Positions 1 through 57,504 of a stretch of DNA of 64,000 nucleotides are shown piece after piece. Position 1 is the first letter of the stretch; the number at the start of each line of letters is the position of its first letter. Source of the stretch: Candidatus Gottesmanbacteria bacterium (GTDB taxonomy: Bacteria; Patescibacteriota; Microgenomatia; UBA10105; UBA927); the NCBI GenBank assembly GCA_963714095.1, contig OY970230.1, positions 660,084-724,083 of the forward strand. The letters run 5' to 3'. A program made the position numbers and the translations under genes. The notes under the pieces were generated by a model. The model did not search any database and was not told the origin of the DNA. It was given only the letters and a program-made list of their open reading frames with translations.

Positions 1-80
1 TATGTTTATTGAGCACGGTGATTATACTTGTTTATGCTCTATGACTCAATCATTGACGGTCTAAACTTTTGGCACGACAC

Positions 81-2221: not shown

Positions 2222-2254
2222 GGATAGGATTATAGCTATTACCGGATCGTTTTT

Positions 2255-3040: not shown

Positions 3041-3083
3041 TTCTGATATAATTCACGTTATTATTCTTTCAATTCCAGCATCA

Positions 3084-3614: not shown

Positions 3615-3615
3615 G

Positions 3616-4389: not shown

Positions 4390-4435
4390 GAAAAAAGAGA
4401 AGGCGGTGTACATATCACCCGTCATCGTTCGGCTA

Positions 4436-5880: not shown

Positions 5881-5936
5881 GCAGGTATTATAACGTATAT
5901 TATTTCTGTATTATTCCAGTTGGTGTCCTTCAAATA

Positions 5937-6896: not shown

Positions 6897-6941
6897 ATTT
6901 TTGCGTTAAAAAAGAATTATAGCATAAGTCATTATCATAAA

Positions 6942-37473: not shown

Positions 37474-38334
37474 TTATAGTTCTTCCAATTTGACCGTGTC
37501 TGTGCCTTTGTCTTTCACCAGCTCCAGATACCGCTCGGTGGTGGAGAGGCGTTTGTGGCCGACCAATTTGCTTAACGTCGTGATAGAAGTGCCCGCCATC
37601 AGATGATGGGCAATGAATGTGTGGCGAAGATCATTAACCTTTGCCCCTTCAATTCCGGCAATCCGGAAATACCGGTCAATCGCGGTTCGTATGTTACGGA
37701 TAAGAAGCGCCCGTCCGGTTTTGGTGACAAAGAGTGCCTTACTGGTTGCATTGGAGCTTCGAATTGCAACGTAGTGGTCCAGGGCCTCTTTGGCAGCCTT
37801 ATTGAGCGGTACCAAACGCTGTGTATGGCCTTCCTGGGCTGCAATATTGAGTTCGGTGCCTTTGATATCGGAAAGGGTGAGGGCAGCAAGTTCTCCGATG
37901 CGGATTCCTGTTTGTAAAAATAGCTCGACAATCGCATAAATACGAGTATCGCCGCGGCATGCATCCCGCAGTGCCCGATACTCGATTTTGGATAAAATCC
38001 TCGGCGGTTTAACCTCATATTTTGGGTGTTCAATCTCGATTGCCGGATCCATGGTAATTGCGCCGGAAGCCTTTAAAAATCGGAAAAAGGTCTTAATAGA
38101 GTTAATCTTTCGTGAGATGGATTTGGGTGTATAGCTATCCGACGCGAGTTTTTTTAAAAATGCCTCCAGTTCGTCGCGCGTCACTTCCGTGATCGTTTTC
38201 TTACCCATGTTAGCAAGAAACGTGATGACCTGTTCGATGTCTTTCCCATATGCTACGATGGTAGCGCGGGCACGCCTGCGGCTGGTTAAATATTCAGTAA
38301 ATTGTGTGTGGGCAGTTTTAAGATCGATAGCCAT
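37474..38334 (-). CDS. xerC: tyrosine site-specific recombinase XerC/XerD family
   Basis: Catalytic-domain residues R...H..R...Y (LRHTFIAHHL..., ERYLE); N-terminal SAM-like domain. Confidence 0.8.
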   Translation of the reverse strand: MAIDLKTAHTQFTEYLTSRRRARATIVAYGKDIEQVITFLANMGKKTITEVTRDELEAFLKKLASDSYTPKSISRKINSIKTFFRFLKASGAITMDPAIEIEHPKYEVKPPRILSKIEYRALRDACRGDTRIYAIVELFLQTGIRIGELAALTLSDIKGTELNIAAQEGHTQRLVPLNKAAKEALDHYVAIRSSNATSKALFVTKTGRALLIRNIRTAIDRYFRIAGIEGAKVNDLRHTFIAHHLMAGTSITTLSKLVGHKRLSTTERYLELVKDKGTDTVKLEEL

Positions 38335-38729: not shown

Positions 38730-38734
38730 CCGTG

Positions 38735-38806
38735 TGTCAGGGGAGAGGATCGGACTCTCGACATGCAGTTTATGATACTGCCGCTCTACCACTGAGCTAC
38801 CCTGAC
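38735..38806 (-). tRNA. tRNA-Met (anticodon CAT; elongator-type or Ile2/lysidine type), 72 nt, CCA not encoded
   Basis: Manual cloverleaf: acceptor GTCAGGG/CCCTGAC, D stem GCTC/GAGC with AGTGGTA loop, anticodon stem GCAGT/ACTGC with loop ATCATAA, T stem GAGAG/CTCTC with loop TCCGATC. Confidence 0.85.
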
Positions 38807-38891
38807 AATAGTGCTATTTTAGCGGTTTTGAGGCGCGAAGGCAATATAAATACATTCAAAATATGGTATAATAGCTTGTTCTTTCATGAAC

Positions 38892-38961
38892 CGCGGGGTA
38901 GTGTAGAGTCGCACAGAAGGCTCATAATCTTCTAGACCAGGCGCGCCTCCTGGCCCCGCAA
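38892..38961 (+). other. degenerate tRNA-like structure (CAT anticodon loop, non-canonical D and T loops) overlapping the 3' end of the serine recombinase gene; possible att-site remnant
   Basis: Foldable as acceptor CGCGGGG/CCCCGCA (C1xA72 mismatch), D stem GTGT/GCAC, anticodon stem GAAGG/TCTTC with loop CTCATAA, T stem CCAGG/CCTGG with atypical loop CGCGCCT; lacks G18G19 and a TPsiC loop. Confidence 0.3.
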
Positions 38962-40665
38962 CAAGCTAGGAATTGAAGCAAACATTTCATCCGTTTGAGC
39001 TGTTGGAATGCTCTGTTTATCGGGTGCGAGTAATTCTTGAAGGATTGGTACCTCAGACTTCATCTTTTTGATGAACGCAAGCGAGAAGGGACTATCAATA
39101 CGCAATGATTTGTCATGTAATTTTAGGTGCGAACCTAACTTCGATAGTATCTCCCGTTTCACTGTGAGGTCAGGTTTTGCAAACCGTTCACGTGCATGAG
39201 CGGCAAAATTGAACTTCTCGTTTATCTCTTCTGCGGCTTGGAGCATGCGTTCGTCTATGCTGCCCATCTGTTTACCCAATCCTTTTATCTCGGCTTCTAG
39301 CTTAAGTTTTTGCTCTTTGAACTGCTCGTCCGATAACATGCTACCGTCGCTGTTGAGCGGTGATATTTTGAGCTTGACGAGGTTATCAAGCTCCTTCCGG
39401 GCGTCGGAATGGGCTCGAGATACCGACCGTATAGCTTCCTCTCGGAAATCCCGTTCCCCGTCATTCATTGCATTGATTTGTCGTATGGACCAATCCACGA
39501 AGCACTGCGGGATTTCGAGAGAGGATAACTCGGCTTCTATCTGTTTCTCAAAGAGATCGAGCCGTATGCCCTTTTGTGTACATTGAATGTCTTTCCGGCG
39601 TTTACAACGGTAGTAAACATAATGCAGTATTGTTGGGTCCTTCATTTGGTCAATCCGAGTTAAACAGCGTGGACATTTTTCTTTGTTTTTCTTCGTGAGA
39701 GAAAACTTAAGCTTACAATGACGGCAAATACACTGCCACTTCTCCTCTGCCGTGATCGTAGAGCCACAAAACCCACATTTCAGAAGTGACGTATACGCCC
39801 ATTCATGATTTTTGAGATGGTATTTACTCTTATGACCTAGAATGACTTGCACTTCCTCAAATAGTTCATCGCTAATGGCGGGGGTATGTTTTCCTTCATG
39901 CCACTCACCACTACCTTCGGGATACTCAAATTTGCCTGTGTAGAATGGGTTACCGAGGATTTTATAGATATTGCTGATAGACAAAGGTCGTCCTCCCATT
40001 CGTTTTTGTTGCCGCGTCCTGTAGCCCCATTCCTTTTCCGCTAAACGATGTATCTCTGTCACCGGCGTACCCTTTCGGAACAACTCAAATATCCTTTGTA
40101 TGAACGGAAGCCGTTCTGGGTCGGTTAAGATACGCCTAAAGCCGCTTTCCGTACCTTTATCGTTGAGATAGCCTTGTGGTGCGACGCCTGGCCGCCATCC
40201 GTCACGGCATTTCTTATCTAAACCACGCTTTACCACGATTGCCTTGTCATCGCTGTCTTTTTTGGATAAGCCGAACTCAAGCGTTAGCATAAACTTATCT
40301 TCCGGTGTGTTGTGGTAGGTCCGGGAAGGTGTGCATACTTCAAGTAGCTTTCCCATATCAAACAGGTCAATTATCCTGCCACCATCAGTCATGTTTCGTG
40401 CTAATCTGTTCGGATGCCACGTGACGATTGCATTTGCTTCACCCTCTTCTATCCGCGAAATCATTGTTTCAAAGATGGGTCGCCCTTTTTCATGCGCTGA
40501 CCGTGATTCTTGGAGCACTTCAATAACCCGCAAGTTATGGCGGGACTTCAAGCCCTCGAGGATATAAAGCTGTTCGGGAAGTGACGCCGCCTGGCGCTCT
40601 TTATTATCCTCCGACGACTTGCGGGCATATCCAAAGTATTTTAGTTGAACTGTTTGTATATCCAT
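38932..40665 (-). CDS. large serine recombinase (resolvase domain + recombinase domain + zinc ribbon + coiled coil)
   Basis: N-terminal catalytic motif YFGYARKSSEDNKERQ (Ser nucleophile), Cys-rich zinc-ribbon region CGFCGS...CRHC...CPRC, 577 aa. Confidence 0.85.
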   Translation of the reverse strand: MDIQTVQLKYFGYARKSSEDNKERQAASLPEQLYILEGLKSRHNLRVIEVLQESRSAHEKGRPIFETMISRIEEGEANAIVTWHPNRLARNMTDGGRIIDLFDMGKLLEVCTPSRTYHNTPEDKFMLTLEFGLSKKDSDDKAIVVKRGLDKKCRDGWRPGVAPQGYLNDKGTESGFRRILTDPERLPFIQRIFELFRKGTPVTEIHRLAEKEWGYRTRQQKRMGGRPLSISNIYKILGNPFYTGKFEYPEGSGEWHEGKHTPAISDELFEEVQVILGHKSKYHLKNHEWAYTSLLKCGFCGSTITAEEKWQCICRHCKLKFSLTKKNKEKCPRCLTRIDQMKDPTILHYVYYRCKRRKDIQCTQKGIRLDLFEKQIEAELSSLEIPQCFVDWSIRQINAMNDGERDFREEAIRSVSRAHSDARKELDNLVKLKISPLNSDGSMLSDEQFKEQKLKLEAEIKGLGKQMGSIDERMLQAAEEINEKFNFAAHARERFAKPDLTVKREILSKLGSHLKLHDKSLRIDSPFSLAFIKKMKSEVPILQELLAPDKQSIPTAQTDEMFASIPSLLRGQEARLV

Positions 40666-40753
40666 AATAAAGGCCGTACTGGTGCAACCACACCCTTGCG
40701 GATATGTCCAATACGGCCATTAAAAATCCGCCCTGGGATATGTGGTTGCATGG

Positions 40754-41638
40754 TTAGTATAGATCATCTTTTAACGATTCGTCAATTTTCTTTTCCAGAG
40801 CGTCTTTTTCTTCCGTATTTAATTCCAGATGTGTTTGAATATCCTGTATGGTTTCCAGAAATTTTGGCTCTACAAGCGTGGCATCATTTGTAAAATCCGC
40901 GGCGTAATCACGGTATACCCGAAGGAGTCTTAGTGATTCATCAAGGTTACAAAACATCGCAATAAGCTCTTCAGAATTTTTTATCAGTTGTTTTATACTC
41001 GCGGGGAGGAAGTCTATGGAAGCTTTCTCTGTCACATAGGACATTTCATAGAGTTTTGATTTGAGTTTTTTTGCGATTTGGAAGGAGAACATAAAGGATT
41101 TTTGAATCCCCCGATTTGGCTCGAGACCACTGGTGTTTGCCGATTGTTCCTCTGTTTGTTCAGTCTCTTCCTCGTCCATTGGAGGATTAAACAAGTCAAA
41201 CCCTTTGAGAATAACGCTGTCTATTTTGTATTTCTTCCGAAGCTCGGAGACGCTCGTTTCGACCGTTGCAGGTGATTTGTTATTTTGATTAGCCATATCA
41301 TAGAAAATTTCCGATATGAGATCCTCGGTTGCGCCTTTCAATATGACCCCCATGAGCGTTTTTTCCAGCTGACAAATCGCCAGGAGGAGATTGCGTTCGG
41401 CTATTTCTATATCAATGTCCAGGAACATGGTTGTCCGGTATAACTCATTCACTCTGCGTATTTCCTTCATCTCACCGGATTTCCGTGCGTCATCTAAAAT
41501 AGCATCCCGTTCTTGAGGTGTAAGAATCGATTCTTTTCCCGCGGTTTCGGCCTGGCGGTTTATATCCTGAAAGAGGAGCTTCATCTTGTCCTGGATATGC
41601 ATCCCCTTGGAAAGTTTTTTGAGATCAAGGTGTACCAT
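40754..41638 (-). CDS. hypothetical protein (acidic, coiled-coil)
   Basis: ORF only. Confidence 0.35.
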   Translation of the reverse strand: MVHLDLKKLSKGMHIQDKMKLLFQDINRQAETAGKESILTPQERDAILDDARKSGEMKEIRRVNELYRTTMFLDIDIEIAERNLLLAICQLEKTLMGVILKGATEDLISEIFYDMANQNNKSPATVETSVSELRKKYKIDSVILKGFDLFNPPMDEEETEQTEEQSANTSGLEPNRGIQKSFMFSFQIAKKLKSKLYEMSYVTEKASIDFLPASIKQLIKNSEELIAMFCNLDESLRLLRVYRDYAADFTNDATLVEPKFLETIQDIQTHLELNTEEKDALEKKIDESLKDDLY

Positions 41639-42095
41639 GAGGTTCCTCCTGTATGTGGGTTTTGAGAAAATTTTGAATCCACTTGTTCAATAGGTGAATG
41701 GTGATCGCCGTGGTGGCCATATATTCACTGAACAAATCCAAGTATTTCCGCATGTGAATGGCCCGGCAGATGTCTATCTGGTCCTTAAATGCTTCCCGGC
41801 CCTCGACAATCTGTTGTAGGGTCATCGGAAAGAGTTTTATCATTGTATCCTCGGGTTTATCTTCAGCCGAGAGCATGATAAAGAGGAAAAATGCATTGAA
41901 CTTACGTTCTTTATCCTCCGCATCCGGTTCTTTCATCTGGTTGAAGAGGTAATGGATATCGTTGTAGAACTCCTCAAGTGTGTACGATACCTCACCTTTG
42001 ACAATTTGGGCTTCCGTTACCATATTATTTTGTGCTCCTTTCAAGAATGACTCGTTCGATCGTTTGTACGCGGTTTTGCAATTCCGACTGTTCAA
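41625..42095 (-). CDS. hypothetical protein
   Basis: ORF only; overlaps neighbours by a few codons (operon-like packing). Confidence 0.3.
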   Translation of the reverse strand: MNSRNCKTAYKRSNESFLKGAQNNMVTEAQIVKGEVSYTLEEFYNDIHYLFNQMKEPDAEDKERKFNAFFLFIMLSAEDKPEDTMIKLFPMTLQQIVEGREAFKDQIDICRAIHMRKYLDLFSEYMATTAITIHLLNKWIQNFLKTHIQEEPHGTP

Positions 42096-42402
42096 ATCCT
42101 TTGAGCGCTACGCCAAGAAGGTAACCAATGGTGCTTGCCACTTTTGGCGGTAGGTTACCAGCACGAACCTCATTGATTGTTTGGATGGCAGCGCTCACAA
42201 CATCAGAAGCGTTGACAATGGTCAATGGCGGTAAGGCTAAGGCCAGCGTGTCGTAACTTGTGGCTTGACCACCTTTTTGGACTGCTGCACGCTTAGTTTC
42301 CTGCATTGTGGGTTCATGGTTGAGGCAGAACATAGAGCCATGGACCGCATACGCACCACACAGTTCTCCGTTTTCTTTGATATAGGTACAGTGTTGAGTC
42401 AT
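42025..42402 (-). CDS. hypothetical protein with N-terminal Cys/His zinc-ribbon-like motif
   Basis: CTYIKENGELCGAYAVHGSMFCLNH. Confidence 0.3.
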   Translation of the reverse strand: MTQHCTYIKENGELCGAYAVHGSMFCLNHEPTMQETKRAAVQKGGQATSYDTLALALPPLTIVNASDVVSAAIQTINEVRAGNLPPKVASTIGYLLGVALKGFEQSELQNRVQTIERVILERSTK

Positions 42403-42438
42403 AAGTGTATAGGTAAGCTACTTACCCGGTAGGGGGAT

Positions 42439-43932
42439 TTACCCTTTCACCCCTTTCAACGAATTATTTATAAGAGCCTGGTCCTCGATAGATAAGCTTT
42501 CAGCTTTGAATACGCCCCGGCGCAGGCCTTCATCTTCCACTTCTATGGCGAGTTTGTTGAGGTAATCCCGTTCTTTTTCCGATATGTCTGGATCGCTTTT
42601 TGTATCTGTGATGTACGCCATGACGCCCTCAATCTCATCATCCGTATAGTTTTTGACGAGCTTATCTGGAAGGAACCGCAACAGAGATTCCGAAGGGGCT
42701 ATCAGAACCGCGCTGTCGGCCTTAATGAGTGTGAAATCTTCATGGAGATTGTATGTTCTGGCGACTCCTTCGGCTTTCGTATCGGCTACGATAACTTCCA
42801 GCCCCTCTAGCTCTTTAAGGAGGCGCTGGCAGGTACGGATGGACTTATTAGTCAGTTCTGATAGCTGCCGTGCCGTTATAAAAGAATTGGCGCGGAAGTG
42901 TTCGAGTATCTCCGCCCGTTCCGCCGGCATCGAAGATATAACGAGCGATTTAAGGATGGCGCAATCCGCTTCTGATACCGCTGTACGCCCGTCAAGAAGC
43001 GCCAGGCACACCGCAAGCCCTTTAAGCTGCTGAAGTGCTCGCCATGGCTCTTCGATTTGCCGGTCTACCACGTCAAAATATGTGACTTGCTTGCCTTCTT
43101 CGTTCGTGAAGCTATCTTTTTGTAATATGATGATACCCCGAGAACGCGCCATGAGAAGCGATGATTTCTCCAGTAGGTTTCGGAGAGGTATGTCGGTAAT
43201 TTCAAATGAGGTAGGTGTTTTTGCCAACAGTTCATTGAAAAACGTGACGCACTGCTCGGCCATCTGCCCGATAAGTTCTTTTCTGCTATGAGAATTCCAG
43301 GCTATCGTGAATCCTTTCGTTTTTCGTTCAAGCGATAACATCGGTATCCGGTAAAACAGGAACCGTGGACCTACGATATTGAGATACTTTTGATGCCGAT
43401 TGAGGGCAGCTGGCGTGATGCACCCGACATGCGAAAATGAGCTCTTATATGATTTATATCCCCGCGTCGGGCTAAACTTGGCAAACTCGCCGTCATAAAT
43501 ACTCACCAACTCGCCGAGGAGCTTCTTTGTCGTTTCCTCGTTGAGGCTAAAAATGGTCGTATAGTCCTTGCAAACAAAGCACTTGCCGTCAAGCTCGGGG
43601 AGGAGGTCGTATGCCTTTTCGCCCTTCCCTGAAGGCTTGTAACCGCTTGCAAACGGGTTTAAGGTGAAGCTGTCAATGAAATAGACGAAATCGAGTTTCC
43701 GTAGGAGCGATACGAGGTCGGTTTTCGCTGATGATGGCACACCGACCAACATGAGCCAGAGTGGAGGATAGAGGTTGAGCTTTGTTGATAGGGCAACCGC
43801 AAAAACACAGCGGACCAGCTCCTCCGGTAGTGATACTATCTCAGATATGTCTTGTAATAAGGCCGAAATCCCATATCCTTTCGGAGTTGGTGACGCGGTT
43901 GTCGTGCTTTGTTGTGTTGCTGGTGCTTCCAT
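42439..43932 (-). CDS. P-loop NTPase with C-terminal winged-helix-like region (candidate element replication/primase-helicase-like protein)
   Basis: Walker A-like LVGVPSSAKTDLV; acidic Walker B-like stretch; C-terminal region with HTH-like character. Confidence 0.35.
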   Translation of the reverse strand: MEAPATQQSTTTASPTPKGYGISALLQDISEIVSLPEELVRCVFAVALSTKLNLYPPLWLMLVGVPSSAKTDLVSLLRKLDFVYFIDSFTLNPFASGYKPSGKGEKAYDLLPELDGKCFVCKDYTTIFSLNEETTKKLLGELVSIYDGEFAKFSPTRGYKSYKSSFSHVGCITPAALNRHQKYLNIVGPRFLFYRIPMLSLERKTKGFTIAWNSHSRKELIGQMAEQCVTFFNELLAKTPTSFEITDIPLRNLLEKSSLLMARSRGIIILQKDSFTNEEGKQVTYFDVVDRQIEEPWRALQQLKGLAVCLALLDGRTAVSEADCAILKSLVISSMPAERAEILEHFRANSFITARQLSELTNKSIRTCQRLLKELEGLEVIVADTKAEGVARTYNLHEDFTLIKADSAVLIAPSESLLRFLPDKLVKNYTDDEIEGVMAYITDTKSDPDISEKERDYLNKLAIEVEDEGLRRGVFKAESLSIEDQALINNSLKGVKG

Positions 43933-44029
43933 AGGTCATACTTTGTGTTATACTTGACCTGCCGAGGGAAGGAGCCTCTTATACATCCCTCCCCCGACAG
44001 GGGTTAGCGGAAACGCTAACTCTTTTCCG

Positions 44030-44446
44030 TTATAACGGCATTACCGCCGATATATTCTGATACTGAACTCCATCTTTTTCCTTCCCGTTCTTGACGAAGA
44101 TTTGACAGGATTTACCTACCAAAGCTTCTATATCAAGCGTTTCTCCTGTTTTCGGTTCTGATTTGGTCAGCGCTTTGACGATACCAAACAGCTTGGAGTT
44201 TTTGCCGGACTTGGAGTTTGATAGCTTTTTTGAAGCTACCAGGGTTTTTGAAACCCCTTTGTGCTCGCCGTCGATCACCTCAAACCGAAATTGGAGATAA
44301 TCGCCGAACTCACCGGAGCCCTCCTCAATTTTTATGAGAGCAGCCTTATATACACCTTCGGGAATCGCTGGCTGAACTTCAGCCTCTTTAACAGTTAGAT
44401 TTATTGCCATAGTTTTACACACCTCCCTTCTTTGTGGACTCATCAC
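44030..44446 (-). CDS. hypothetical protein (138 aa)
   Basis: ORF only. Confidence 0.3.
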   Translation of the reverse strand: MMSPQRREVCKTMAINLTVKEAEVQPAIPEGVYKAALIKIEEGSGEFGDYLQFRFEVIDGEHKGVSKTLVASKKLSNSKSGKNSKLFGIVKALTKSEPKTGETLDIEALVGKSCQIFVKNGKEKDGVQYQNISAVMPL

Positions 44447-44597
44447 GATGCAGTTTTCTTGGGTAGTAAACGGCTCTCACTAGGCCGACGAGACGTTCTC
44501 CGATGTCCCGTGCATATACTTTTGTTATTGCGATACCGTAGTATTTTTGATACATGTCCATAAATTCGGCGACAGCTTGGTCAGTAAGTCGTTGCAT
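44415..44597 (-). CDS. hypothetical small protein (60 aa)
   Basis: ORF only; tightly packed with the 82-aa ORF. Confidence 0.2.
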   Translation of the reverse strand: MQRLTDQAVAEFMDMYQKYYGIAITKVYARDIGERLVGLVRAVYYPRKLHRDESTKKGGV

Positions 44598-44598
44598 G

Positions 44599-44847
44599 CT
44601 ACCGCTCCTCGTACAGTCGCGTTTTAATAAGTTTGAGTTGGTAAAAATATGCTTGAGGAGAAACCTTCATTTCGCCTCGCCAATAGGACTCAATAAACTT
44701 GTCGAGCTGGTCGTCACGTTTGAATAGGAATTCCGCCTTATGAGGATTGCGTCTATCTATCCCCTCAAGCGGGAAAAAAAGCGATAAAGCCGCGGTCATG
44801 GAAAGATCGGAGGTTGAGTAATAGTCATTGTAATTTTTCTGCGTCAT
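44599..44847 (-). CDS. hypothetical small protein (82 aa)
   Basis: ORF only. Confidence 0.25.
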   Translation of the reverse strand: MTQKNYNDYYSTSDLSMTAALSLFFPLEGIDRRNPHKAEFLFKRDDQLDKFIESYWRGEMKVSPQAYFYQLKLIKTRLYEER

Positions 44848-44985
44848 ATCTGTTGTTCGCTGGGTAAACCAGTTTTATGAACTAATGAAATTAAACTACC
44901 TAACCTCGACGTTAGGTCAACGTTTAGGAGTATTAAGGTTTTGAGGCTAAAAAAGAAGTTGGTGTTTAGGTTTTACGTATTAAGG

Positions 44986-45993
44986 CTATTCAGGTTTGGA
45001 AACAAATTTTATCCGATACGCACCGCTGGCTGGTTTAGGCTCCAGGGGATCGTCTTTCGTAGACGGTATACTTACATATCGTTTTAGTTCCGGGCTAAAC
45101 AGTTTTTCAATCTGACTTATGGTAGCTCGTACGTAGTTCGGATTCTTCCGACCGCGAAGTGTGCTAATTGTCGTCCATTTACCTTTCTGATCTGTTAGTT
45201 TCACATACATGGTTTTTCTGTCCTCGCTCGAGAATGTTACTTCGCCATATTGTCCAAAACGAAAAGTATTGCCCTCCCATTTAAAATCGTCCTGCCATTC
45301 GGGTTTTTCTTCTACGGCCGTTTGGGAAGAGGGCGGGATACTTGTTGGCGCACTTTGTCCGGCAGTTGTTTGATGACTGCCATTCTGCTCCAAGAGCTTT
45401 TGTATTTTTTGGAGTTTGTCGGTTGTTGTAGTAATGAGCAAACTTCCACCTATGTCTTCACGTTCCGATTGTAATATGCCCCATTCTTCCAGTTTTGCAA
45501 TAATTGTCCATTCGTTATAATCGTTGTCTGAACCAATATACGTAGCTGGGTTAAATGTAAAAGGTTCATTGACAGGTGCCAATTCTGACTCATCAACTAA
45601 TCGATTTACAACACCGAGAATTCTATTTTTTGCCTTTGGAGATAATCTGGAAATCGCAACCTGATAGGTATTCTGGTAAGCCTGTGGCTCACATATTTGT
45701 TGATAGTGTTCGTACACCACATCAAACGCTGGTTGGTTTATCCTGAGTATGAATCCGGAGCGGAAATTACCATAGCCGGGTTCAATTTCTCGTACGATTT
45801 CAACCGCCCCGGTTTCTTTGGCTAGTTTGTTTATTATTATTTGTCGTTTACGGTCAGCAGTCGGGACTCCGGATGCGAATACGCTATGGGTTGTTTCGTA
45901 GATAAATGTATTACCTCCCGCCGCAAGACCTTCTTCTTTCAGCCGCTGTAACACAAACCAAACCTCTTGATTGAATGTTTCTTCTGGAGTCAT
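44986..45993 (-). CDS. hypothetical protein (335 aa)
   Basis: ORF only. Confidence 0.35.
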   Translation of the reverse strand: MTPEETFNQEVWFVLQRLKEEGLAAGGNTFIYETTHSVFASGVPTADRKRQIIINKLAKETGAVEIVREIEPGYGNFRSGFILRINQPAFDVVYEHYQQICEPQAYQNTYQVAISRLSPKAKNRILGVVNRLVDESELAPVNEPFTFNPATYIGSDNDYNEWTIIAKLEEWGILQSEREDIGGSLLITTTTDKLQKIQKLLEQNGSHQTTAGQSAPTSIPPSSQTAVEEKPEWQDDFKWEGNTFRFGQYGEVTFSSEDRKTMYVKLTDQKGKWTTISTLRGRKNPNYVRATISQIEKLFSPELKRYVSIPSTKDDPLEPKPASGAYRIKFVSKPE

Positions 45994-46100
45994 AGTAATT
46001 GTAATAATTGGGAATATAAGAAACTGGCCGTATTTTACGCCTTTTTGATGGATAACTCAATGAAAATTATAAGTACGGTTGGTCTCCTGTTTGCTAAAAT

Positions 46101-47471
46101 TTATTGATGGTAGATGATAAACGGCCGTGTCGCCGTAGAAGGGAAATCGGTTGGCCGTTTTTCTTCAGTGAAGACGGTCATGTCACAGGATTGAGACGAA
46201 CTGGGCGCATAATCCATGATGTTATTGACATAGAGAGAAAACAGTTGCGGCGGATCATCCAATTGTCTGTCGATACAGATGAGCTTTGTCCTATGCGCCT
46301 GCGCAAGCGTAAGGATGAATGTTGCAGTATTTTGAGGCTGTTCCATCGGCGTAATTCGGTAAAATAGATACCCTTCGCCGAGAATATACACGATAAGAAT
46401 GATGCTGATAATTAATTTGTTCTGGAAAATAGACGTTACTCCGTATGCGGCAATGAGCGAAAGAGCAGGAATGATGATAAAGAGCCGGGTGGTCGGCAGA
46501 TCCACTGACGGATAAGTGAACGTGATAACAATTCCCAAAACGACTGCCCAAATAAAACAAAGTATAGATGCTACTTTGTTCTTTTTGGACCGGGGGAGCG
46601 CCACACAGCCAATGAAAAATGCAATTACTAAAAGTGGAGAGAAGAGCGGTGTGGTAACAAAGTGGTGTTGTGTTCCTTGGGTATGCACGACGAGGCTAGT
46701 CAGGAGCGAACCGATGAGCTTCCACGGAACGCCATGATAATACGGGTGCGTGACTGACTCTTTGAGCATTGCAGAAACAATTGAACCTTGATTAACAACT
46801 GCGAAGGGAAGGAAAAGTAAAAGGAATCCGCTTACAAAAACGAGAAGCTGTTTTTTGTGAAAGATCACCAGAGGAATCAAAATGATAAGAATACTTCGGG
46901 CAGCGAAAAATGTATAAAAGCATGCGCCGGCGCTTATCCCGCTTAAGAATACGTAGACGGATTTTTTGGTGGACAGAAATAAACAATAGAAAAGTATGGA
47001 TGTTAGAAATGGAAGAAATGCCTGTAAATTATTGTACCCGATGTGCGCGAAACCATACAGATAGTGAGAAAACCCCATAAACACCATAGCGGTAAGCGCC
47101 GTGAGGTGTTTTTTAAATAATACCAGCGCTATACCGTATACCAACAGCATGCTGATGATGAGTGTGGCAATGTTCGCGCTTTTCCAGCCGACAAGATTGA
47201 CGCCGAACGCCTTCATCCACACGGCCTGATAGACCGAGTCGGCAACAGGGTGATATCCATAGACACCATTCTGTGAAAATAATTGAGGAATCGACACACC
47301 ATGGGTTGCTATATAAGATGCCTTATAAAAAAATGCATATTCGTCGCCTATCAGGGCATAGCGGGGGTTAAAAATATCGATGGCAAGTCCAAAGATGAGA
47401 AGGCATATAAAAGGCAGAAGAATCAATCTTTTCATGGCTATATAAGCCATTATACCAGTGAAGTGGAGCAA
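46101..47471 (-). CDS. integral membrane glycosyltransferase, GT-C fold (PMT/ArnT/GT39-like)
   Basis: About 11-12 TM helices and the large-loop architecture typical of dolichyl/undecaprenyl-phosphate-sugar dependent GT-C enzymes. Confidence 0.5.
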   Translation of the reverse strand: MLHFTGIMAYIAMKRLILLPFICLLIFGLAIDIFNPRYALIGDEYAFFYKASYIATHGVSIPQLFSQNGVYGYHPVADSVYQAVWMKAFGVNLVGWKSANIATLIISMLLVYGIALVLFKKHLTALTAMVFMGFSHYLYGFAHIGYNNLQAFLPFLTSILFYCLFLSTKKSVYVFLSGISAGACFYTFFAARSILIILIPLVIFHKKQLLVFVSGFLLLFLPFAVVNQGSIVSAMLKESVTHPYYHGVPWKLIGSLLTSLVVHTQGTQHHFVTTPLFSPLLVIAFFIGCVALPRSKKNKVASILCFIWAVVLGIVITFTYPSVDLPTTRLFIIIPALSLIAAYGVTSIFQNKLIISIILIVYILGEGYLFYRITPMEQPQNTATFILTLAQAHRTKLICIDRQLDDPPQLFSLYVNNIMDYAPSSSQSCDMTVFTEEKRPTDFPSTATRPFIIYHQ

Positions 47472-47550
47472 TTAGTCCGATTAGCCTCTACCGTTCCCAG
47501 CGCCCTTATTTATGTTAAGGCAAACTGAGGCTGATTTGTGGTCAAAAAGT

Positions 47551-47579
47551 AGGTTCTAAGTTCTTGTAAACCCCGCAAC
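47551..47579. repeat. 29-nt intergenic motif AGGTTCTAAGTTCTTG-N4-CCCCGCAAC (copy A), upstream of minus-strand gene 46101..47471
   Basis: Identical 16-mer and 9-mer separated by a 4-nt variable spacer; also present at 48740..48768; the 9-mer also occurs at 38954..38962. Confidence 0.7.
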
Positions 47580-47634
47580 CAAAGCTAATTTAGTCCGTTA
47601 GAACGGGTTTTTTCAAAAAAAACTAAAATGTAAC

Positions 47635-48633
47635 TTAAGACGTTGGTTGAGGCGCTTGAGCGACTTGTGAAGTTGGATGAACTTTTTGCATATCCTTTAG
47701 GATTTTATCGGCGTTATCTTCTGTTGCCAGCATAATTTTGGAATATGATTTTTCACCATAGACGTTTTCTATTGCTCTTGCTAGCGGTAGTGTTTCATGG
47801 AGTATTCTTGCTCTGACGGATAATTTCTCAAAATCAGGGACTGTGGTTAATAATTCTTTCACTAGATTAACGCTCTCCGGATAGGAAAAAGAGATCTCGT
47901 TTGCTACGTTAAAAGATTCTGGAGGACTTCCCGATTCGGCAACGATATCTTTCACGGCATCTGAGGCTTTAGATATAATTGTCCATTCTTTTGGAAAATG
48001 CTTTTCGATCACAGTTTTCATTCGGTGCTCTGCAAGCATAGCTAGCCCTTCTTCTACGGCATAGCCTTTCTTATGACGTTTTCCTTCTTGAAATTGGAGA
48101 CCTTGTCTGTCTAATCCAATAACTCGCGTATCTTTCTGGCCAAAACGTTTTCCCAGATCACCGGCTTTCTGAATTGTCTCCTTTACGATGGATGGTGCGG
48201 TTGCATGAAATAATTCATGTGCCATTGTTAAACACGATCCTATGTATGTAATATTGTTTCGCGTGTCTTTGGGAATAGAAGCGTCCCTGCTTAATTTGCC
48301 CACAAAAGAATTTTTACCTACCTGTTCAGATACAACGACCAAACCAGGGAGCGAAAGCCCCATTTCATCGCCTAAATGAGCTATTTCCGAATCAGTATAG
48401 GCAATTTCAGGCCATTGAATATTGTTGACCCCGAAATTCGAAAAATAGGCCTCGTATGCTTGTTTTATATCATCTGTACATTGTTGTACTGGTTCAGGAA
48501 TTGGTTTGGCAAGTTCTTTGTAATGGTTCACAATAGGCTCGATCCCACTTTGGACTAGCCGTTTTTGTTCCATGACAATAGCATCGCTTGAAGGTAGCCC
48601 TCGTAATTCTCCGGTTGTTATTAAATCTCCCAT
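47635..48633 (-). CDS. hypothetical protein with HExxH zinc-metallopeptidase-like motif
   Basis: LTMAHELFHATAP (HExxH); otherwise no recognised domain. Confidence 0.35.
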   Translation of the reverse strand: MGDLITTGELRGLPSSDAIVMEQKRLVQSGIEPIVNHYKELAKPIPEPVQQCTDDIKQAYEAYFSNFGVNNIQWPEIAYTDSEIAHLGDEMGLSLPGLVVVSEQVGKNSFVGKLSRDASIPKDTRNNITYIGSCLTMAHELFHATAPSIVKETIQKAGDLGKRFGQKDTRVIGLDRQGLQFQEGKRHKKGYAVEEGLAMLAEHRMKTVIEKHFPKEWTIISKASDAVKDIVAESGSPPESFNVANEISFSYPESVNLVKELLTTVPDFEKLSVRARILHETLPLARAIENVYGEKSYSKIMLATEDNADKILKDMQKVHPTSQVAQAPQPTS

Positions 48634-48739
48634 TTAGTACAGAGTACACTATTAATTGGGGCGATTCCAGGCCTTATCATCCGTTTCATTTTTAGAGGTC
48701 AAACAGTAGCTATTCTATAGGCGTTTTTCGTTAGATACC

Positions 48740-48768
48740 AGGTTCTAAGTTCTTGGAGTCCCCGCAAC
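48740..48768. repeat. 29-nt intergenic motif AGGTTCTAAGTTCTTG-N4-CCCCGCAAC (copy B), upstream of minus-strand gene 47635..48633
   Basis: See copy A. Confidence 0.7.
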
Positions 48769-48849
48769 ACAATAAGTACATACATCAATGTTCCTTGGAA
48801 CCATATCTCTTCGAATCGAACGTATTCCAACCGACAATCTGTTTTTCTG

Positions 48850-50400
48850 TCAATTCTGGTTGAGGAGTAATCCGGCATCCATTTTTACCCGCCAAATGCG
48901 TTCATAGAATTCGTATTTAGATACGAATTCTTTGGCTATATTGAGATGAGAAAAAAGCACGTTTTGCTTTTCGTTTGGATCTTTTTGTATATCATAAAGC
49001 TCGTAGGGGGTAAATGTAGAATCAGCATTTCGTTTTACATGAAGTTTCCACTGTTTATTTCTTATCACCATAGTATCCAGATCCCATCCGTCAGAAATGA
49101 TTAGTCTGTCGGGAAGCGGTTTTCCCTCGATTTCTCCGACAAGACTACTCCCCTGAAATTCATTTTGATAGGCAATTCCAACCATATCAAGAATTGTAGG
49201 AGCAAGATCTGTTAATTGTACCGGCGTTGATATCTGTTCTGGCTTCGTGATGCCGGGAATATAAAAAATAAGCGGAATATGCAGGTTAGAATCATAGATA
49301 GTTTGATGATATATTGACCCATGTTCCATAAATTCTTCACCATGATCAGCAGTAAATATAACGATTGTTGAATTTTTAATATGAACATTGGATGACAAAA
49401 ACTGGATAAGCGTAGAAATTTTAGACTCATCCATTTGGTTAATACGTTGATCATACAAAGCCCGAAGGTAATTAACATCACGCGGGGAATGAATATCAAA
49501 AGCATTATTGTATTTTACATTATCCCAGGATGCCCATAGAAAGGGGCTATATTTTGAATTATAAAGCAGCTCCGAATCCAATAGCTGGGGATCGTAATTA
49601 TTTTTGACCATTATGGACAGCGCCTCTTTCATAACGACGTCGGCAAGAGGGTCAGTATTTGATTTAAGCGCCTTTTGCACTTCTATATATAATTTTTGGT
49701 AGGATTCTTTCGATGTGCGATTATAGTCTTCGCCTGTAAGCGGTATGTTGGGATATTGTTCGGTTGTGTAGAATTTTGGGCTGTATCCAATTAAATAGGG
49801 CTCATGAACGTCATATGTATGAAGGAATAAAAATGTTTTTTTATTCTGATTGACATTCACAGTAAAGCTTTGAAGGGCTTGATACCAGTCATTTTGTCCT
49901 TCGTAAAATACCGTATTTATCCCACGGTTATAGACGTTTTGAAGAGGTAATGCCGGATCAGCGCCAGGTAAGACAAAAAGTGTCATGTATCCGTTTTTTT
50001 GTAATATTTCCGGAAGAAACGGTATATTTTTTGAAAGAGAGTCGCTATATGTTGTATTCACTCCGTGAATATTTGGATTTAACCCGGTGAACATCGATAC
50101 GTGGCTCGGTAACGTATACATGCCATTGGCGTAGGCATGTGAAAACAGTATATTCTGATGTGCGAATGTGCAGAGGTTTGGAGCGGTGTTACGATCATAC
50201 CCATAACAGGGGAGATGATTTGCACTGAGCGTGTCCAATGAGACAAGAATGACATTACAGTTTTTACAAAGGGGTGAAGAGTATTTTGTCCCGAAAAGTT
50301 TTTCCCGAATACTATATTCCCCAGCCAATCCGAGGGCCAATAGTACTAACAGGATACACAAAAGAAAGGGATATCTGTATCGCGGAGAGTTTAGATTCAT
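48850..50400 (-). CDS. sulfatase-family (alkaline phosphatase superfamily) membrane-anchored enzyme, LtaS/EptA-like with Thr in nucleophile position
   Basis: N-terminal TM; VILVSLDTLSANHLPCYGY metal-binding block; YTLPSHVSMFTGL in place of the sulfatase C/S-x-P-S-R motif (Thr/His substitution). Confidence 0.6.
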   Translation of the reverse strand: MNLNSPRYRYPFLLCILLVLLALGLAGEYSIREKLFGTKYSSPLCKNCNVILVSLDTLSANHLPCYGYDRNTAPNLCTFAHQNILFSHAYANGMYTLPSHVSMFTGLNPNIHGVNTTYSDSLSKNIPFLPEILQKNGYMTLFVLPGADPALPLQNVYNRGINTVFYEGQNDWYQALQSFTVNVNQNKKTFLFLHTYDVHEPYLIGYSPKFYTTEQYPNIPLTGEDYNRTSKESYQKLYIEVQKALKSNTDPLADVVMKEALSIMVKNNYDPQLLDSELLYNSKYSPFLWASWDNVKYNNAFDIHSPRDVNYLRALYDQRINQMDESKISTLIQFLSSNVHIKNSTIVIFTADHGEEFMEHGSIYHQTIYDSNLHIPLIFYIPGITKPEQISTPVQLTDLAPTILDMVGIAYQNEFQGSSLVGEIEGKPLPDRLIISDGWDLDTMVIRNKQWKLHVKRNADSTFTPYELYDIQKDPNEKQNVLFSHLNIAKEFVSKYEFYERIWRVKMDAGLLLNQN

Positions 50401-50463
50401 AATCCTAATTATTAAATAATATACTGTATTTTAATTATGTGGAAGATGCAGGAGGATCGATTG

Positions 50464-52488
50464 TCAACGACCGTCTGTAAACACAGGCAAACTTTTGCCT
50501 TGAACAAAACCGGGGATCGCAACATGTAACGCTTTCATAATTGTCGGGTATTGATTTACCAGAGAAAACGGTGTGTTTCCCAGAAAATTATTCTTTTTTA
50601 TCCCGGGACCCGCGATAATAAACGGAGTCCACATCCCCGGGTCATTTTTGGCAATAATTGCCTGTTTATATCCCGTCACATCAGGAATAGTGAATAGCTT
50701 CAAGTCTGATGACATCTCCTCGTTCCACCCAAAGCCCGGTGCATTGGCTATAATAAGGTCTCCCGCTCGGTCTGGATCCATCTGAAGGAATTCTTTGGCG
50801 TCTTCCCATTTGACGATATCGACAACCGGCTTCGATCCGTCAGTATACGTTAAATCGGTTAATGTCTTAATCACGTCATTCCGTAATTGTTCATAGGCTG
50901 GACCTGATGCACGTTGATAGTTTCCGCCCAATCCGTTAGGATTGATATACACGTGTGCCATCTTCAAATAAATAACCTGTGAATTCTTCCAGTCGATGAT
51001 AGGCTCACCGGTTTTTGGATTTATCGTAAACTTCAGCCACCCCTTTTGGGCAAACAGATTATTAAGATTTACGTATATATTTAACGGTACATTTCCGTGA
51101 TCGGAACTTAATACAATATATGTATTAGGACCGGTATTTTTTATCACTTCACCGATTAAATTATCAAGCCGTTTATACATTCCCTGCACTTCCTGCCAGA
51201 GCTGCTCACGATCTGCGGCAGACACATCATTATACCGGGTGCTTTTTGGATCCACGTACCCCATCCACCAGCGGCTGGTAAGCATTTGATTCGGTGTATA
51301 AATATCATGAATGACGACGTTGGGAGAAAAGTTTTTGATGACCTGAGACACTGCCTTTGTATGCCAGTCGAACGACATTGCTGCTTCGTCCGAAAAAATC
51401 TTTTTATCTTCAGGATAATAGATGAGCTGGGCCGGGTAATTATCGGGGAAATCCACCATGGGTCCGACTGTTTGTTCAAGGATATCCGCTGCATCGGCGG
51501 GCTGGGTAATGTATCGATTAAGCTGATCAAAATACAGCGTTACACGGAAAAAGCCATCATTATCAACTTTAATAACAGCAGGTTTAACTTTTGTTGCAAC
51601 ATCAATTGTCTGATTACCGGAAGTCCATTTAAGGGTTATGGGAGCCCAATTGCCCCATTGGCCGGTGGTTAAATCGGCAAAAAACGTCTCTTTATCAAGA
51701 GAAAACCCGACACGGTCATAATTGACTGAATGGTCATCCGTCGAATCATAAATATACAGGTAAACTGTTGTTCCCCACGCAGCAAGCGTTACCTCTTTGG
51801 GTGGCGAATACGAGGTCGGCGGTTTTGTCCAGCCTGAAGGAGTAGTACCATCATAAAATTGGGTGAGTTCAGGCCCGAAGTAAAAAAATCTGGAGGCTCT
51901 GCCCAGTCGAATTCGCTGTGCGAGATTTCCTTTTGTTTCGTACGTAAGCGCGGCAAAATCCGCTCCCCATCCGCCCCAGCGACCATGGATAACGACACCT
52001 TTTTGAATTTCAGGTGGTGTGGAGCCTGGCACAGATACAATTGCTACTTTCATCCCCGCCTGTTCAAGAGTTGTCCATATCGCCGGCACTTTTCGCGCAG
52101 TCGATCTGAATCCGGGCACCGCAACACTATCGAGGGGTTTCCCAATTGCCCTCATTGGTCCGTCGTCAATTCCGTTTACTTCAGGGTAACTGCCCGTAAG
52201 GAGAGCTGCAAAATTAGTCGGTGTATGGCTGGGAAAGTTCGGATAAGAGTAGCCATAGGATCCGTTGTCCATTAATTTTTTGATATTCGGCAATTTTCCT
52301 TCCTCTGCCCATTTATACACAGTAAAAAGACTTGGTTCTGCTCTCATTCCATCGGGGATAAACCAATAGAGTTTTACCGGACTCGGGGGTGAGGGCTTTG
52401 GTCGAAGAATAAAAAATCCTGCCAGTCCGATAAGGATAAAAAGTGCAACAATAAGCAAAAATATGTTAAATGATTGCTTTTTTCTCAT
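50464..52488 (-). CDS. type I phosphodiesterase / nucleotide pyrophosphatase (NPP) family protein, membrane-anchored
   Basis: N-terminal TM; LYWFIPDGMRAE metal-binding block; NPP nucleophile region FPSHTPTNFAALLTGSYP. Confidence 0.65.
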   Translation of the reverse strand: MRKKQSFNIFLLIVALFILIGLAGFFILRPKPSPPSPVKLYWFIPDGMRAEPSLFTVYKWAEEGKLPNIKKLMDNGSYGYSYPNFPSHTPTNFAALLTGSYPEVNGIDDGPMRAIGKPLDSVAVPGFRSTARKVPAIWTTLEQAGMKVAIVSVPGSTPPEIQKGVVIHGRWGGWGADFAALTYETKGNLAQRIRLGRASRFFYFGPELTQFYDGTTPSGWTKPPTSYSPPKEVTLAAWGTTVYLYIYDSTDDHSVNYDRVGFSLDKETFFADLTTGQWGNWAPITLKWTSGNQTIDVATKVKPAVIKVDNDGFFRVTLYFDQLNRYITQPADAADILEQTVGPMVDFPDNYPAQLIYYPEDKKIFSDEAAMSFDWHTKAVSQVIKNFSPNVVIHDIYTPNQMLTSRWWMGYVDPKSTRYNDVSAADREQLWQEVQGMYKRLDNLIGEVIKNTGPNTYIVLSSDHGNVPLNIYVNLNNLFAQKGWLKFTINPKTGEPIIDWKNSQVIYLKMAHVYINPNGLGGNYQRASGPAYEQLRNDVIKTLTDLTYTDGSKPVVDIVKWEDAKEFLQMDPDRAGDLIIANAPGFGWNEEMSSDLKLFTIPDVTGYKQAIIAKNDPGMWTPFIIAGPGIKKNNFLGNTPFSLVNQYPTIMKALHVAIPGFVQGKSLPVFTDGR

Positions 52489-52575
52489 TTAATTCAGCCT
52501 TATTAAAGTTCATATCATGTTCACCCAAAAATATCAAGAAGATAAAGTGATAGACAGGATGAGAGAATGTAGACT

Positions 52576-57179: not shown

Positions 57180-57205
57180 CGCTTTATTTATGATAAAATG
57201 CGTTT

Positions 57206-57478
57206 ATGCCAGTGATTAGTCCCACAGAATACGGCATAAAACCTCGACCGGACCATAAACCCGGGTATATTCTGGTGACGCCTACCGAACAACAATTTTT
57301 TGAGGTTGATGGTACGGACGTGCGATTGGACAGGATAAGAGTTTTTGGGCCTAACGGGTTTGAAAGGTCATATTTAAGAGACAAAATAGGCCAGAGGTTT
57401 ACTGATAATCTATCAGGAACGGAGGATGACTTTGCTTATTTGGTTACACCGGAGAAAAAGAGAGAGCGCAGGTTCTAA
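57206..57478 (+). CDS. hypothetical small protein (90 aa)
   Basis: ORF only. Confidence 0.3.
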   Translation: MPVISPTEYGIKPRPDHKPGYILVTPTEQQFFEVDGTDVRLDRIRVFGPNGFERSYLRDKIGQRFTDNLSGTEDDFAYLVTPEKKRERRF

Positions 57479-57504
57479 ATTCTTTGGAGGCACCGTAACT
57501 AAAT

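Follow-up and report, generated by a model that had tools for sequence, protein, structure and literature searches.

A candidate integrative, self-replicating element of Microgenomates in an initiator-type tRNA(CAU) gene, with its attachment site inside the reading frame of a large serine recombinase

The DNA analysed here is a stretch of 64,000 nucleotides (the window) from contig OY970230.1 of Candidatus Gottesmanbacteria bacterium. It carries an 8,617-bp segment that we interpret, with a probability of about three in four, as an integrative, self-replicating mobile element of Microgenomates (Patescibacteria) inserted in an initiator-type tRNA(CAU) gene. The segment lies between two 9-bp cores, CCCCGCAAC, at 38954-38962 (attL) and 47571-47579 (attR), and encodes a large serine recombinase (LSR) of 577 aa whose open reading frame (ORF) runs across the attachment (att) site. 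That an integrated mobile element with an LSR is present had been proposed in an initial annotation of this DNA, and this proposal is borne out by the domains of the recombinase and by the absence of the block from the closest related genome. The site of insertion, the distal end and the nature of the tRNA-like fragment had been assigned differently, and the evidence for the present assignments is laid out below (for coordinates see Table 1).

Attachment sites and the target tRNA gene

A scan of one genome per species with the valyl-tRNA synthetase (ValRS) sequence yielded ten syntenic Patescibacteria loci, of which the closest, L002 (ValRS 76%, XerC/D-like recombinase 89% and elongation factor P 89% identical), has an empty site. 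The identity of the window with this site ends right after the CCCCGCAAC core, and relative to L002 the region 38963-57499 (18,537 bp) is inserted as a whole, with synteny resuming at 57.5 kb. The 9-mer CCCCGCAAC recurs at 47571-47579 and at 48760-48768, preceded in both cases by AGGTTCTAAGTTCTTG. In silico recombination of 38954-62 with 47571-79 yields an 8,617-bp circle and a tRNA gene that is perfect and has its terminator; the junctions reconstructed by this joining are attP = tttgtggtcaaaaagtaggttctaagttcttgtaaaCCCCGCAACaagctaggaattgaagcaaacatttc and attB = ctagaccaggcgcgcctcctggCCCCGCAACcaaagctaatttagtccgttagaacggg. The initial annotation had ended the element at 45993; with attR at 47571-47579, the gene for a 456-aa membrane protein belongs to it as well.

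A search for empty sites in related genomes, which the initial annotation had recommended, was successful: L002, L003 and L005 lack the element at the orthologous tRNA, which is occupied in the window, L012, L016, L020 and others. These empty sites refute the explanation that the block is part of the core genome. Its companion, according to which the LSR resolves chromosome dimers, is refuted by the XerC/D-like gene at 37474..38334, which is real, as had been annotated, and is a conserved host gene, with the LSR missing in L002. We found no point in favour of either explanation and regard both as practically negligible.

The canonical tRNA-Met next to which the initial annotation had placed the recombinase is not the target. 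The 577-aa ORF is indeed there and its stop codon lies 125 nt from tRNA-Met, but the element sits in a neighbouring, divergently transcribed tRNA(CAU) gene. What had been taken for a tRNA-like fragment overlapping the ORF is a complete, functional-looking gene (38892-38961, plus strand: CGCGGGGTAGTGTAGAGTCGCACAGAAGGCTCATAATCTTCTAGACCAGGCGCGCCTCCTGGCCCCGCAA), which folds into a 70-nt cloverleaf with the anticodon CAU, a C1.A72 mismatch and the anticodon loop CUCAUAA. Both the T loop (CGCGCCU) and the 6-nt D loop are non-canonical, and neither ARAGORN nor Rfam reports a tRNA at 38892-38961. Nonetheless, in 16 distinct orthologous sequences the cells of the cloverleaf are 100% paired, five pairs show compensatory double changes, and none of 500 shuffles attains the observed covariation score. 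The orthologue in L002 (6790-7052, minus strand) has an identical 3' exon and a group I intron between U33 and C34 (Rfam RF00028, 58.8 bits); CCA, a terminator and a gene for a protein with an RNA recognition motif (RRM) come straight after the tRNA. Because the L002 tRNA carries the same 3' exon, the odd T loop is native to the host tRNA; its derivation from the element by way of the LSR end was considered and rejected on the same grounds.

The CAU anticodon and the weak 1:72 pair (C1.A72, or U1-A72 in some orthologues) are as expected of an initiator. The three G-C pairs of the initiator anticodon stem are not all present, the positions being A-U (27:39), G-C (28:38) and G-U (29:37). LSRs that are built alike but less closely related (36-40% identity) are found at L052 and L058 on textbook initiator tRNA-fMet genes, which share the acceptor stem CGCGGGG/CCCCGCA with the window tRNA(CAU) and have the canonical GGG/CCC anticodon stem together with the same LSR insertion. 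From these features we infer that tRNA(CAU) is a genuine, lineage-specific tRNA of the initiator type.

The group I intron, 180-217 nt long and lying between U33 and C34, is present in tRNA(CAU) of L002, L003, L012, L016, L020, L028, L034, L035, L046 and L060, and the gene is intron-less in the window, L005, L021, L025-27, L030 and L033; the intron is thus a presence/absence polymorphism within one lineage. The T loops of these initiator-type tRNAs are of the kind CGCGCCU or UGCGAYU and the 6-nt D loop has no GG, while the T loop of the neighbouring tRNA-Met is also unusual (UCCGAUC). It may be that the interaction between T loop and D loop has been remodelled in these Microgenomates.

The arms of the sites resemble those of known serine integrases. 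The 3' end of the LSR gene contains the P' arm (38963-~38990), which is conserved as CAAGNNAGGAAT in at least 20 loci. All P arms carry AGGTTC at 17 nt from the core, and the T-arm position of the B arm (GGTTC in canonical versions, e.g. L021 and L022) is 12 nt from it. For LI integrase, the motif bound by the zinc ribbon is placed 5 bp farther out in attP than in attB (PMC3783163), and the arms of the window attP and attB fit this 5-bp shift, so that the P arm resembles the T arm and acceptor of a tRNA lengthened by 5 bp. We also considered whether the repeats at 47.5, 48.7 and 57.5 kb are displaced 3' halves of tRNAs and rejected this, the P arms coding for the LSR tail.

The recombinase reading frame across the attachment site

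The 577-aa protein contains a Resolvase domain (PF00239, 1.3e-15, residues 11-154) with the motif YARKSSED, which fits the catalytic-serine pattern YxRxSS/T and is invariant in 5 relatives, and a Recombinase domain (PF07508, 2.3e-11). The zinc ribbon (PF13408) scores 20.9 bits, under the cut-off of 25.3, and is accompanied by four conserved cysteine pairs (C297/C300, C314/C317, C331/C334 and C354/C362). Residues 420-490 form a heptad-rich region, a candidate coiled coil. The protein thus has the make-up of an LSR and is predicted to integrate by attP x attB and, with a directionality factor, to excise by attL x attR recombination.

The LSR gene adjoins attL, and its stop codon (CTA in the variable loop of the tRNA) and last ten codons (LLRGQEARLV) are antisense to the 3' third of tRNA(CAU). 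At the other end, every attR P arm read in the LSR frame encodes LRGL[QHEK]E[LI]RT[YW][YF]L..., with a stop after 21-24 codons at most sites. In 13 distinct P arms the amino acids Gly, Leu, Arg and Leu are invariant, each specified by 4-5 synonymous codons (AGA, CGA, AGG and CGC at the Arg position; TTA, CTC, CTG and TTG at one Leu position), and the variable columns at codon positions 1/2/3 number 5/3/9. Since the amino acids are invariant and the synonymous codons vary, the P arm bears the signature of a protein-coding tail and not merely that of a binding site.

When the ends of the element in the window are joined in silico, the LSR becomes a protein of 590 aa ending in ...SLLRGLQELRTYFLTTNQPQFALT; joining via the site at 48.7 kb instead also gives 590 aa, ending in ...TWYLTKNAYRIATV. 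The tails of integrated LSRs are antisense tRNA peptides (QEARLV and a stop in the window; QESHLV or RESRPA and a stop elsewhere), with longer read-throughs where the tRNA has no CTA. As the integrated forms vary in their tails and the P-arm tail is conserved, it is the excised form, with its ~19-aa tail GLQELRTYFL..., that would be the conserved form of the enzyme. Since the ORF runs across the att site, its C-terminal codons change with the state of integration, and the last ~19 of them would be swapped whenever the element enters or leaves the chromosome. Integration would also strip the tRNA of its terminator, and transcriptional read-through from the tRNA would be antisense to the LSR.

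Gene content and nature of the element

The ORFs of the window were assigned to families with Pfam and PHROGs, and those of the cargo were also compared with PADLOC and NCBIfam. The initial annotation had described nine packed genes behind the recombinase. A co-oriented, tight block reaching 45993 is present, but it comprises eight ORFs after the LSR. The notion that all of these genes are unknown can be abandoned, as an MCM-like helicase, a DUF669 protein resembling single-stranded DNA-binding (SSB) proteins, a DUF5659 protein and a PMT_2-like membrane protein are recognised (Table 1).

Table 1. Features of the element, its attachment sites and the adjoining tRNA-Met (window coordinates)
Feature	Coordinates	Strand	Evidence and remarks
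tRNA-Met(CAT)	38734..38806	-	ARAGORN and Rfam; canonical host gene with its own promoter, outside the element
Initiator-type tRNA(CAU) gene, B arm of attL (attB-derived, to 38962)	38892-38961	+	Cloverleaf fold, covariation; intron-less here
LSR, 577 aa (integrated form)	38932..40665	-	Pfam Resolvase, Recombinase, zinc ribbon; phrog_95 integrase, 2e-60
attL common core CCCCGCAAC	38954-38962	+	Covers acceptor 3' strand, discriminator and first C of CCA
294-aa protein	40754..41638	-	81% identical in L012, absent elsewhere; no family matches; backbone in L012 only
Small protein, 156 aa from TTG	41625..42095	-	79% identical in L012, called there as 132 aa
125-aa protein with N-terminal Cys/His cluster	42025..42402	-	92.8% identical in L012; no family matches
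MCM-like AAA+ helicase, 497 aa	42439..43932	-	AF2 model, Foldseek, HTH_24 domain
DUF669 protein, phage-type, like single-stranded DNA-binding proteins	44030..44446	-	PF05037, 8.5e-7; phrog_378 SSB, 3e-10
60-aa backbone protein	44415..44597	-	Same position in L012, L014, L020
DUF5659 backbone protein	44599..44847	-	PF18903, 1.8e-8; same position in L012, L014, L020, L021, L022
335-aa modular protein, start of variable region	44986..45993	-	Partial N- or C-terminal homologues only
456-aa multi-pass membrane protein, variable cargo	46101..47471	-	PMT_2, E = 0.0095, below cut-off; inside attL-attR
attR: P arm and core (47571-47579)	47510..47579	-	Minus strand, LSR frame: encodes LRGLQELRTYFLTTNQPQFALT, then stop
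tRNA-trailer-like sequence	47580..47612	+	CA (completes CCA), AT-rich stretch, hairpin CCGTTAGAACGG, T run
Second attR-type site: P arm and core (48760-48768)	48699..48768	-	Encodes LRGLQELRTWYLTKNAYRIATV, then stop
Degenerate third attR-type site CAGGTTCTAAATTCTTTGGAGGCACCGTAAC	57469..57499	+	Synteny with L002 resumes exactly there; weak by profile

The 497-aa protein had been described as a replication-type NTPase, and it does have a Walker-A-like motif (GVPSSAKT) and a winged helix-turn-helix. An AlphaFold (AF2) model built from a 40-sequence alignment has a mean predicted local distance difference test (pLDDT) score of 82, and a Foldseek search of the PDB with this model returned MCM2-7 or archaeal MCM subunits as all of the top 50 matches (E 4e-7 to 3e-5, probability 1.0, template-modelling score TMq 0.35-0.45). 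Matches in BFVD were uncharacterised Caudovirales proteins (TM 0.6), a fusellovirus ORF, DUF3987 proteins and phage primase/helicases, and many of its homologues by sequence bear an N-terminal Toprim, DnaG-type or Prim-Pol/PriCT primase domain. The sequence profile matched only the winged helix in PDB sequences, neither Pfam MCM nor DUF3987 was matched, and the region before the P-loop is short (about 55 aa), which leaves the protein without the N-terminal oligonucleotide-binding (OB)/zinc part of an MCM. Judged by the model, the protein is MCM-like in fold and not an MCM member by sequence; this makes it an AAA+ replicative helicase with a winged helix and the replication protein of the element. 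In its AAA+ core, C-terminal winged helix and relatives fused to archaeo-eukaryotic primase Prim-Pol or Toprim domains it resembles the MCM-like primase-helicases of prophages and plasmids (P4 alpha/D5/DUF3987 type and, presumably, BcMCM type); it differs from them by having no primase domain and no match to Pfam MCM or DUF3987.

The DUF669 protein is kept in all related elements, and together with the helicase it argues that the circle would be able to replicate. The small protein at 41625..42095 probably starts at the ATG at 42023 and has 132 aa, and the 125-aa protein is a candidate regulator or directionality factor. The 335-aa protein and a 332-aa protein encoded beyond attR have almost no homologues, the 456-aa membrane protein has none in related elements, and PADLOC and NCBIfam gave nothing useful for the cargo.

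The cycle we propose is as follows. The LSR, presumably with a directionality factor, would recombine attL with attR, releasing the circle and restoring the tRNA with its CCA and terminator. In the circular state the LSR ORF would read across attP into the P arm and yield the 590-aa enzyme with the tail GLQELRTYFL..., which in the chromosomal state would be replaced by the antisense-tRNA peptide (QEARLV here). The circle would be kept or amplified by the MCM-like helicase and the DUF669 SSB-like protein, with primase and polymerase supplied by the host, and would re-integrate by attP x attB recombination into the acceptor end of the initiator tRNA. This end is nearly invariant, so it would offer a target in many hosts, and the tRNA would not be destroyed.

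The initial annotation had considered a small prophage or phage-plasmid remnant beside an integrative element. The element ORFs have no Pfam or PHROGs match to capsid, portal, terminase, tail, packaging or lysis families, and searches of IMG/VR with the LSR protein and alignment, the helicase and the P-arm DNA pattern revealed no relatives, so a plasmid-like episome is preferred over a virus. A small temperate virus that packages the 8.6-kb circle, with its structural proteins among the 294-, 132-, 125- and 335-aa ORFs, would nevertheless agree with the phage-type replication genes (DUF669 of phrog_378, a helicase like proteins of uncultured Caudovirales and fuselloviruses, an LSR of phrog_95) and with the four to five ORFs that have no detectable family. 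We consider it unlikely, given the missing virion and lysis families and IMG/VR relatives, and given that in sister elements the ORFs between helicase and LSR are replaced and the distal region is exchanged for restriction-modification (R-M) or glycosyltransferase cargo, unlike a structural module. Slightly less probable again is a phage satellite of the type of P4 or the phage-inducible chromosomal islands (PICI), which would have its own integration and replication and depend on a helper phage for particles. The size (8-12 kb), the integrase at one end, the replication protein of primase/helicase type, the small regulators and the lack of virion genes of its own would suit such a satellite; however, genes for a small terminase, for capsid size or for helper interference were not detected, these hosts have no known helper phage, and the cargo consists of defence and cell-surface genes, not of packaging genes.

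Several observations weigh against an autonomously replicating, mobile element. Neither an excised attP junction nor a 590-aa LSR was found among the LSR tails of 32 metagenome loci and of the 90% clusters, all copies examined there being integrated forms. The element encodes no primase, though many homologous helicases carry one, a search for iterons or origin repeats within it found none, and no directionality factor was identified in it. The designation 'plasmid-like' is due to the lack of recognisable virion genes in an element with several unannotated ORFs. The tandem attR-type sites described below are not predicted by the canonical attP x attB chemistry of LSRs.

Related elements, the island and known systems

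Related loci were collected via homologues of the 497-aa helicase, and a scan of metagenome contigs with the LSR alignment added 52 loci. At least 20 distinct loci have an LSR whose C-terminus reads ...IPxLLRG followed by a peptide from antisense tRNA(CAU). L012, which holds the closest relative of the element, is a JGI contig of 126 kb that matches the window in its host neighbourhood and has one clean 11.5-kb copy: an intron-containing tRNA(CAU), the core and then the 3' end of the LSR gene, a backbone collinear with the window and an attR that reads AGGTTCTAAGTTCTTGtaacCCCCGCAACCA plus terminator. The window and L012 are 92.5% identical in the LSR, 92.9% in the helicase and 92.8% in the 125-aa protein. 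Of the host genes, ValRS is 60.6% and DivIC 57% identical, with Xer (88%) and RRM (92%) also high, and ValRS is 76% identical in the element-free L002 as against 60.6% in the element-bearing L012. By these comparisons the element appears less diverged than the host backbone, which indicates horizontal movement or differential loss and not vertical inheritance of a core region. In L023, an LSR of 42% identity has its stop codon inside tRNA-Glu(TTC) and is integrated there in the same manner.

The order of the backbone in the family is DUF5659, a ~60-aa protein, DUF669, the ~497-aa helicase, 0 to 3 small ORFs and the LSR; the small ORFs between helicase and LSR are replaced by unrelated ones in sister elements. 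Cargo varies in the distal third of the element, a bay that holds the 335-aa and 456-aa proteins in the window, type I R-M genes in L014 and L023, a glycosyltransferase, PMT_2 and lysylphosphatidylglycerol (LPG) synthase in L020, and large unknown proteins in L021 and L022. The R-M systems of L014 (1973-7780) and L023 (2285-7256) are complete; in L014 and L023 the LSR is only 42% identical and the helicases are 79% and 55% identical, respectively.

Contig ends offer indirect support for mobility. The Logan contig L022, which spans one related element, extends 18 nt into the tRNA at one end and 21 nt into the trailer at the opposite end; for Logan contigs, which we take to be assembled at k=31, these are exactly the lengths at which junction-specific 31-mers run out, with P' and B' sharing AAA after the core. 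The ends of L022 thus fit a coexistence of occupied and empty sites in that sample. L013, with a contig break of the k-mer type at one end only, is ambiguous, and so is L001 (the window's own LSR), which ends 20 nt into the tRNA and fits an alternative junction with A[not A], for example the tRNA joined to the flank of the 48.7-kb site.

An element that was once mobile and is now fixed, its LSR decaying or kept for another role, could also be envisaged: the excised form was seen in no collection searched, and the neighbouring units of the island (see below) are clearly immobilised remnants without an LSR. Against this stand the intact LSR ORF, the perfect 9-bp cores, the intact tail ORF of attR, the 93% identical element in a host with ValRS of 61% when a closer host lacks it, and the contig breaks of L022, and we rate such a remnant a little below the satellite in likelihood.

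We also observed that in L012 and L005, as compared with the window and L002, the segment with tRNA(CAU) lies in reverse orientation between its DivIC/tRNA-Met and RRM flanks, whether or not it carries the element, and that in L020 an incomplete, inverted P-arm-like site (14347-14369) lies directly upstream of the tRNA. Both could be the footprint of inversion mediated by the recombinase.

Beyond attR, the 18.5-kb insertion continues with two further units, and we favour the view that repeated events at one tRNA have built up this island, the mobile element being its most recent insertion. The first unit (1.19 kb, 47580-48768) has one gene, for the 332-aa protein (47635..48633), whose only homologue lies in an ordinary chromosomal operon and lends no support to mobility of a cassette. 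The second (8.7 kb, up to 57499) encodes a sulfatase, a phosphodiesterase and ORFs of 973 and 579 aa, and is followed in the homology with L002 by the host tRNA trailer, the terminator and the RRM gene. No LSR or remnant of one was found in either unit, and the 973- and 579-aa ORFs (52576-57179), which lie in the oldest unit of the island, have no family match in Pfam, NCBIfam or PADLOC.

Similar arrays occur in L030, with three attR-type sites, and in L049, with three and a degenerate one, where units of 0.7-1.5 kb encode Fic, GIY-YIG, a DUF433/DUF5615 toxin-antitoxin pair and DUF1232; these arrays (L030, 58-2542; L049, 100-3065 and 814-842) have a cassette-like layout. Tails encoded within one array differ mainly at synonymous sites, so the sites come from different lineages of the element and not from local duplication. 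The flank expected to be the P' arm of an older element looks like the host tRNA trailer (window from 47580; the pairs in L030 and L049). Neither finding is expected from standard attP x attB recombination. Possible origins of the arrays are accretion followed by loss of the backbone, LSR-less units that regenerate attB, or capture of cargo through excision at a distal site.

A bolder interpretation, which we put forward as doubtful speculation, joins a built-in state switch, due to attP lying in the LSR ORF, with a linked accretion platform at the initiator tRNA, which would be a serine-recombinase analogue of an integron in these bacteria. In such a switch only the circle would make the 590-aa enzyme, and the integrated copy, its tail swapped, may be transcribed against by the terminator-less tRNA. 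The platform may consist of LSR-less units of one or two genes (toxin-antitoxin pairs, Fic, enzymes) with attR-type ends able to complete the LSR ORF, and these may be re-captured as cargo by excision at a distal site. The likeness to integron cassette arrays lies in units of one or two genes (toxin-antitoxin pairs, Fic, unknowns), each followed by a recombination site, beside a recombinase gene. In contrast to integrons, the recombinase here is of the serine and not the tyrosine type, the sites are half-coding and attR-like instead of folded attC sites, there is no evidence of unit movement, and the array is distal to the recombinase and not at attI.

The host genes around the locus are ordinary Patescibacteria genes, with ValRS, the XerC/D-like recombinase and DivIC on the left, and the RRM protein, tRNA-Trp, a pyridoxal phosphate (PLP) enzyme, TrpRS/TyrRS and FtsH on the right; the canonical tRNA-Met adjoins DivIC, an arrangement kept in relatives. 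The RRM gene (57559-57924) contains a perfect 30-nt tandem repeat (2.1 copies, 57582-57655) in the part coding for the Gly-rich tail, and shares a bidirectional terminator with the tRNA locus. A low-GC cluster (34-43%) at 1-7000 of the window encodes a GT4 glycosyltransferase, a sugar transferase, a sulfotransferase, an ABC-2 exporter and an adenosine phosphosulfate (APS) kinase, a set of genes that points to sulfated-glycan synthesis; beside it we note the sulfatase and phosphodiesterase of the tRNA island (48850-52488). The public MAG records of L002, L009 and L010 are titled 'uncultured Gammaproteobacteria', which are probably taxonomic mislabels, as the loci are syntenic with Patescibacteria and clearly belong to them.

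Among known systems, the phage-type large serine integrases (phiC31, Bxb1, A118/LI) have in common with the LSR of the window the order of catalytic domain, recombinase domain and zinc ribbon with coiled coil, a short core, asymmetric sites with the distal motif 5 bp farther out in attP (PMC3783163), and the expectation of a directionality factor for excision. The present element differs from them in its target (a tRNA 3' end), its 9-bp core, the location of attP in the recombinase ORF and the mimicry of the tRNA T arm and acceptor by the P arm. In a mycobacterial survey, serine integrases disrupt ORFs and have cores of 5-8 bp, and it is the tyrosine integrases that use tRNAs (PMC8092301).

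Tyrosine-recombinase islands and prophages of the P4-int type likewise target tRNA 3' ends, preserve the tRNA and have the integrase adjoining it, and accrete in tandem at one tRNA with variable cargo that includes defence genes; here, however, the recombinase family and chemistry are different, 9 bp are shared instead of a long duplicate of the tRNA 3' end, and the encoded CCA has been moved to attR together with the terminator. The integration-dependent immunity of mycobacteriophage BPs, whose attP lies in the repressor gene, is similar in that attP is near the 3' end of a coding sequence, the target is a tRNA and the C-termini of the free and integrated forms differ (PMC4557955). In BPs the affected protein is a repressor, the integrase is of the tyrosine type and the tail is an ssrA-like degradation tag, whereas here it is the serine recombinase itself that is altered. 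The SSV1-type archaeal integrases also have attP within the int gene and a tRNA target (PMC8371274), but they are tyrosine recombinases whose gene is split and inactivated by integration, and here integration swaps only the last ~19 codons and leaves the ORF intact. What is new is thus a family of serine-integrase elements of the Candidate Phyla Radiation (CPR) that combines an initiator-tRNA target, attP within the integrase ORF, an MCM-like replication module and a hotspot of accretion.

Little has been described of the mobile elements of Patescibacteria/CPR, and genetic tools are lacking for these organisms. The family described here recurs in more than 20 loci; its replication module is compact and its attP and attB are defined exactly. 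An LSR that targets an initiator tRNA is a natural candidate for an integration vector and a source of new LSR/att pairs. Standard tRNA finders miss the initiator tRNA in these lineages, which matters for annotation and for pipelines that predict att sites. The tandem arrays of sites suggest how small genomes gather genes for defence and surface modification at one locus. An ORF that runs across attP suggests a directly testable way in which a serine integrase might sense integration, and, if the state switch is real, the directionality or expression of a serine integrase would be set by the product of its own recombination.

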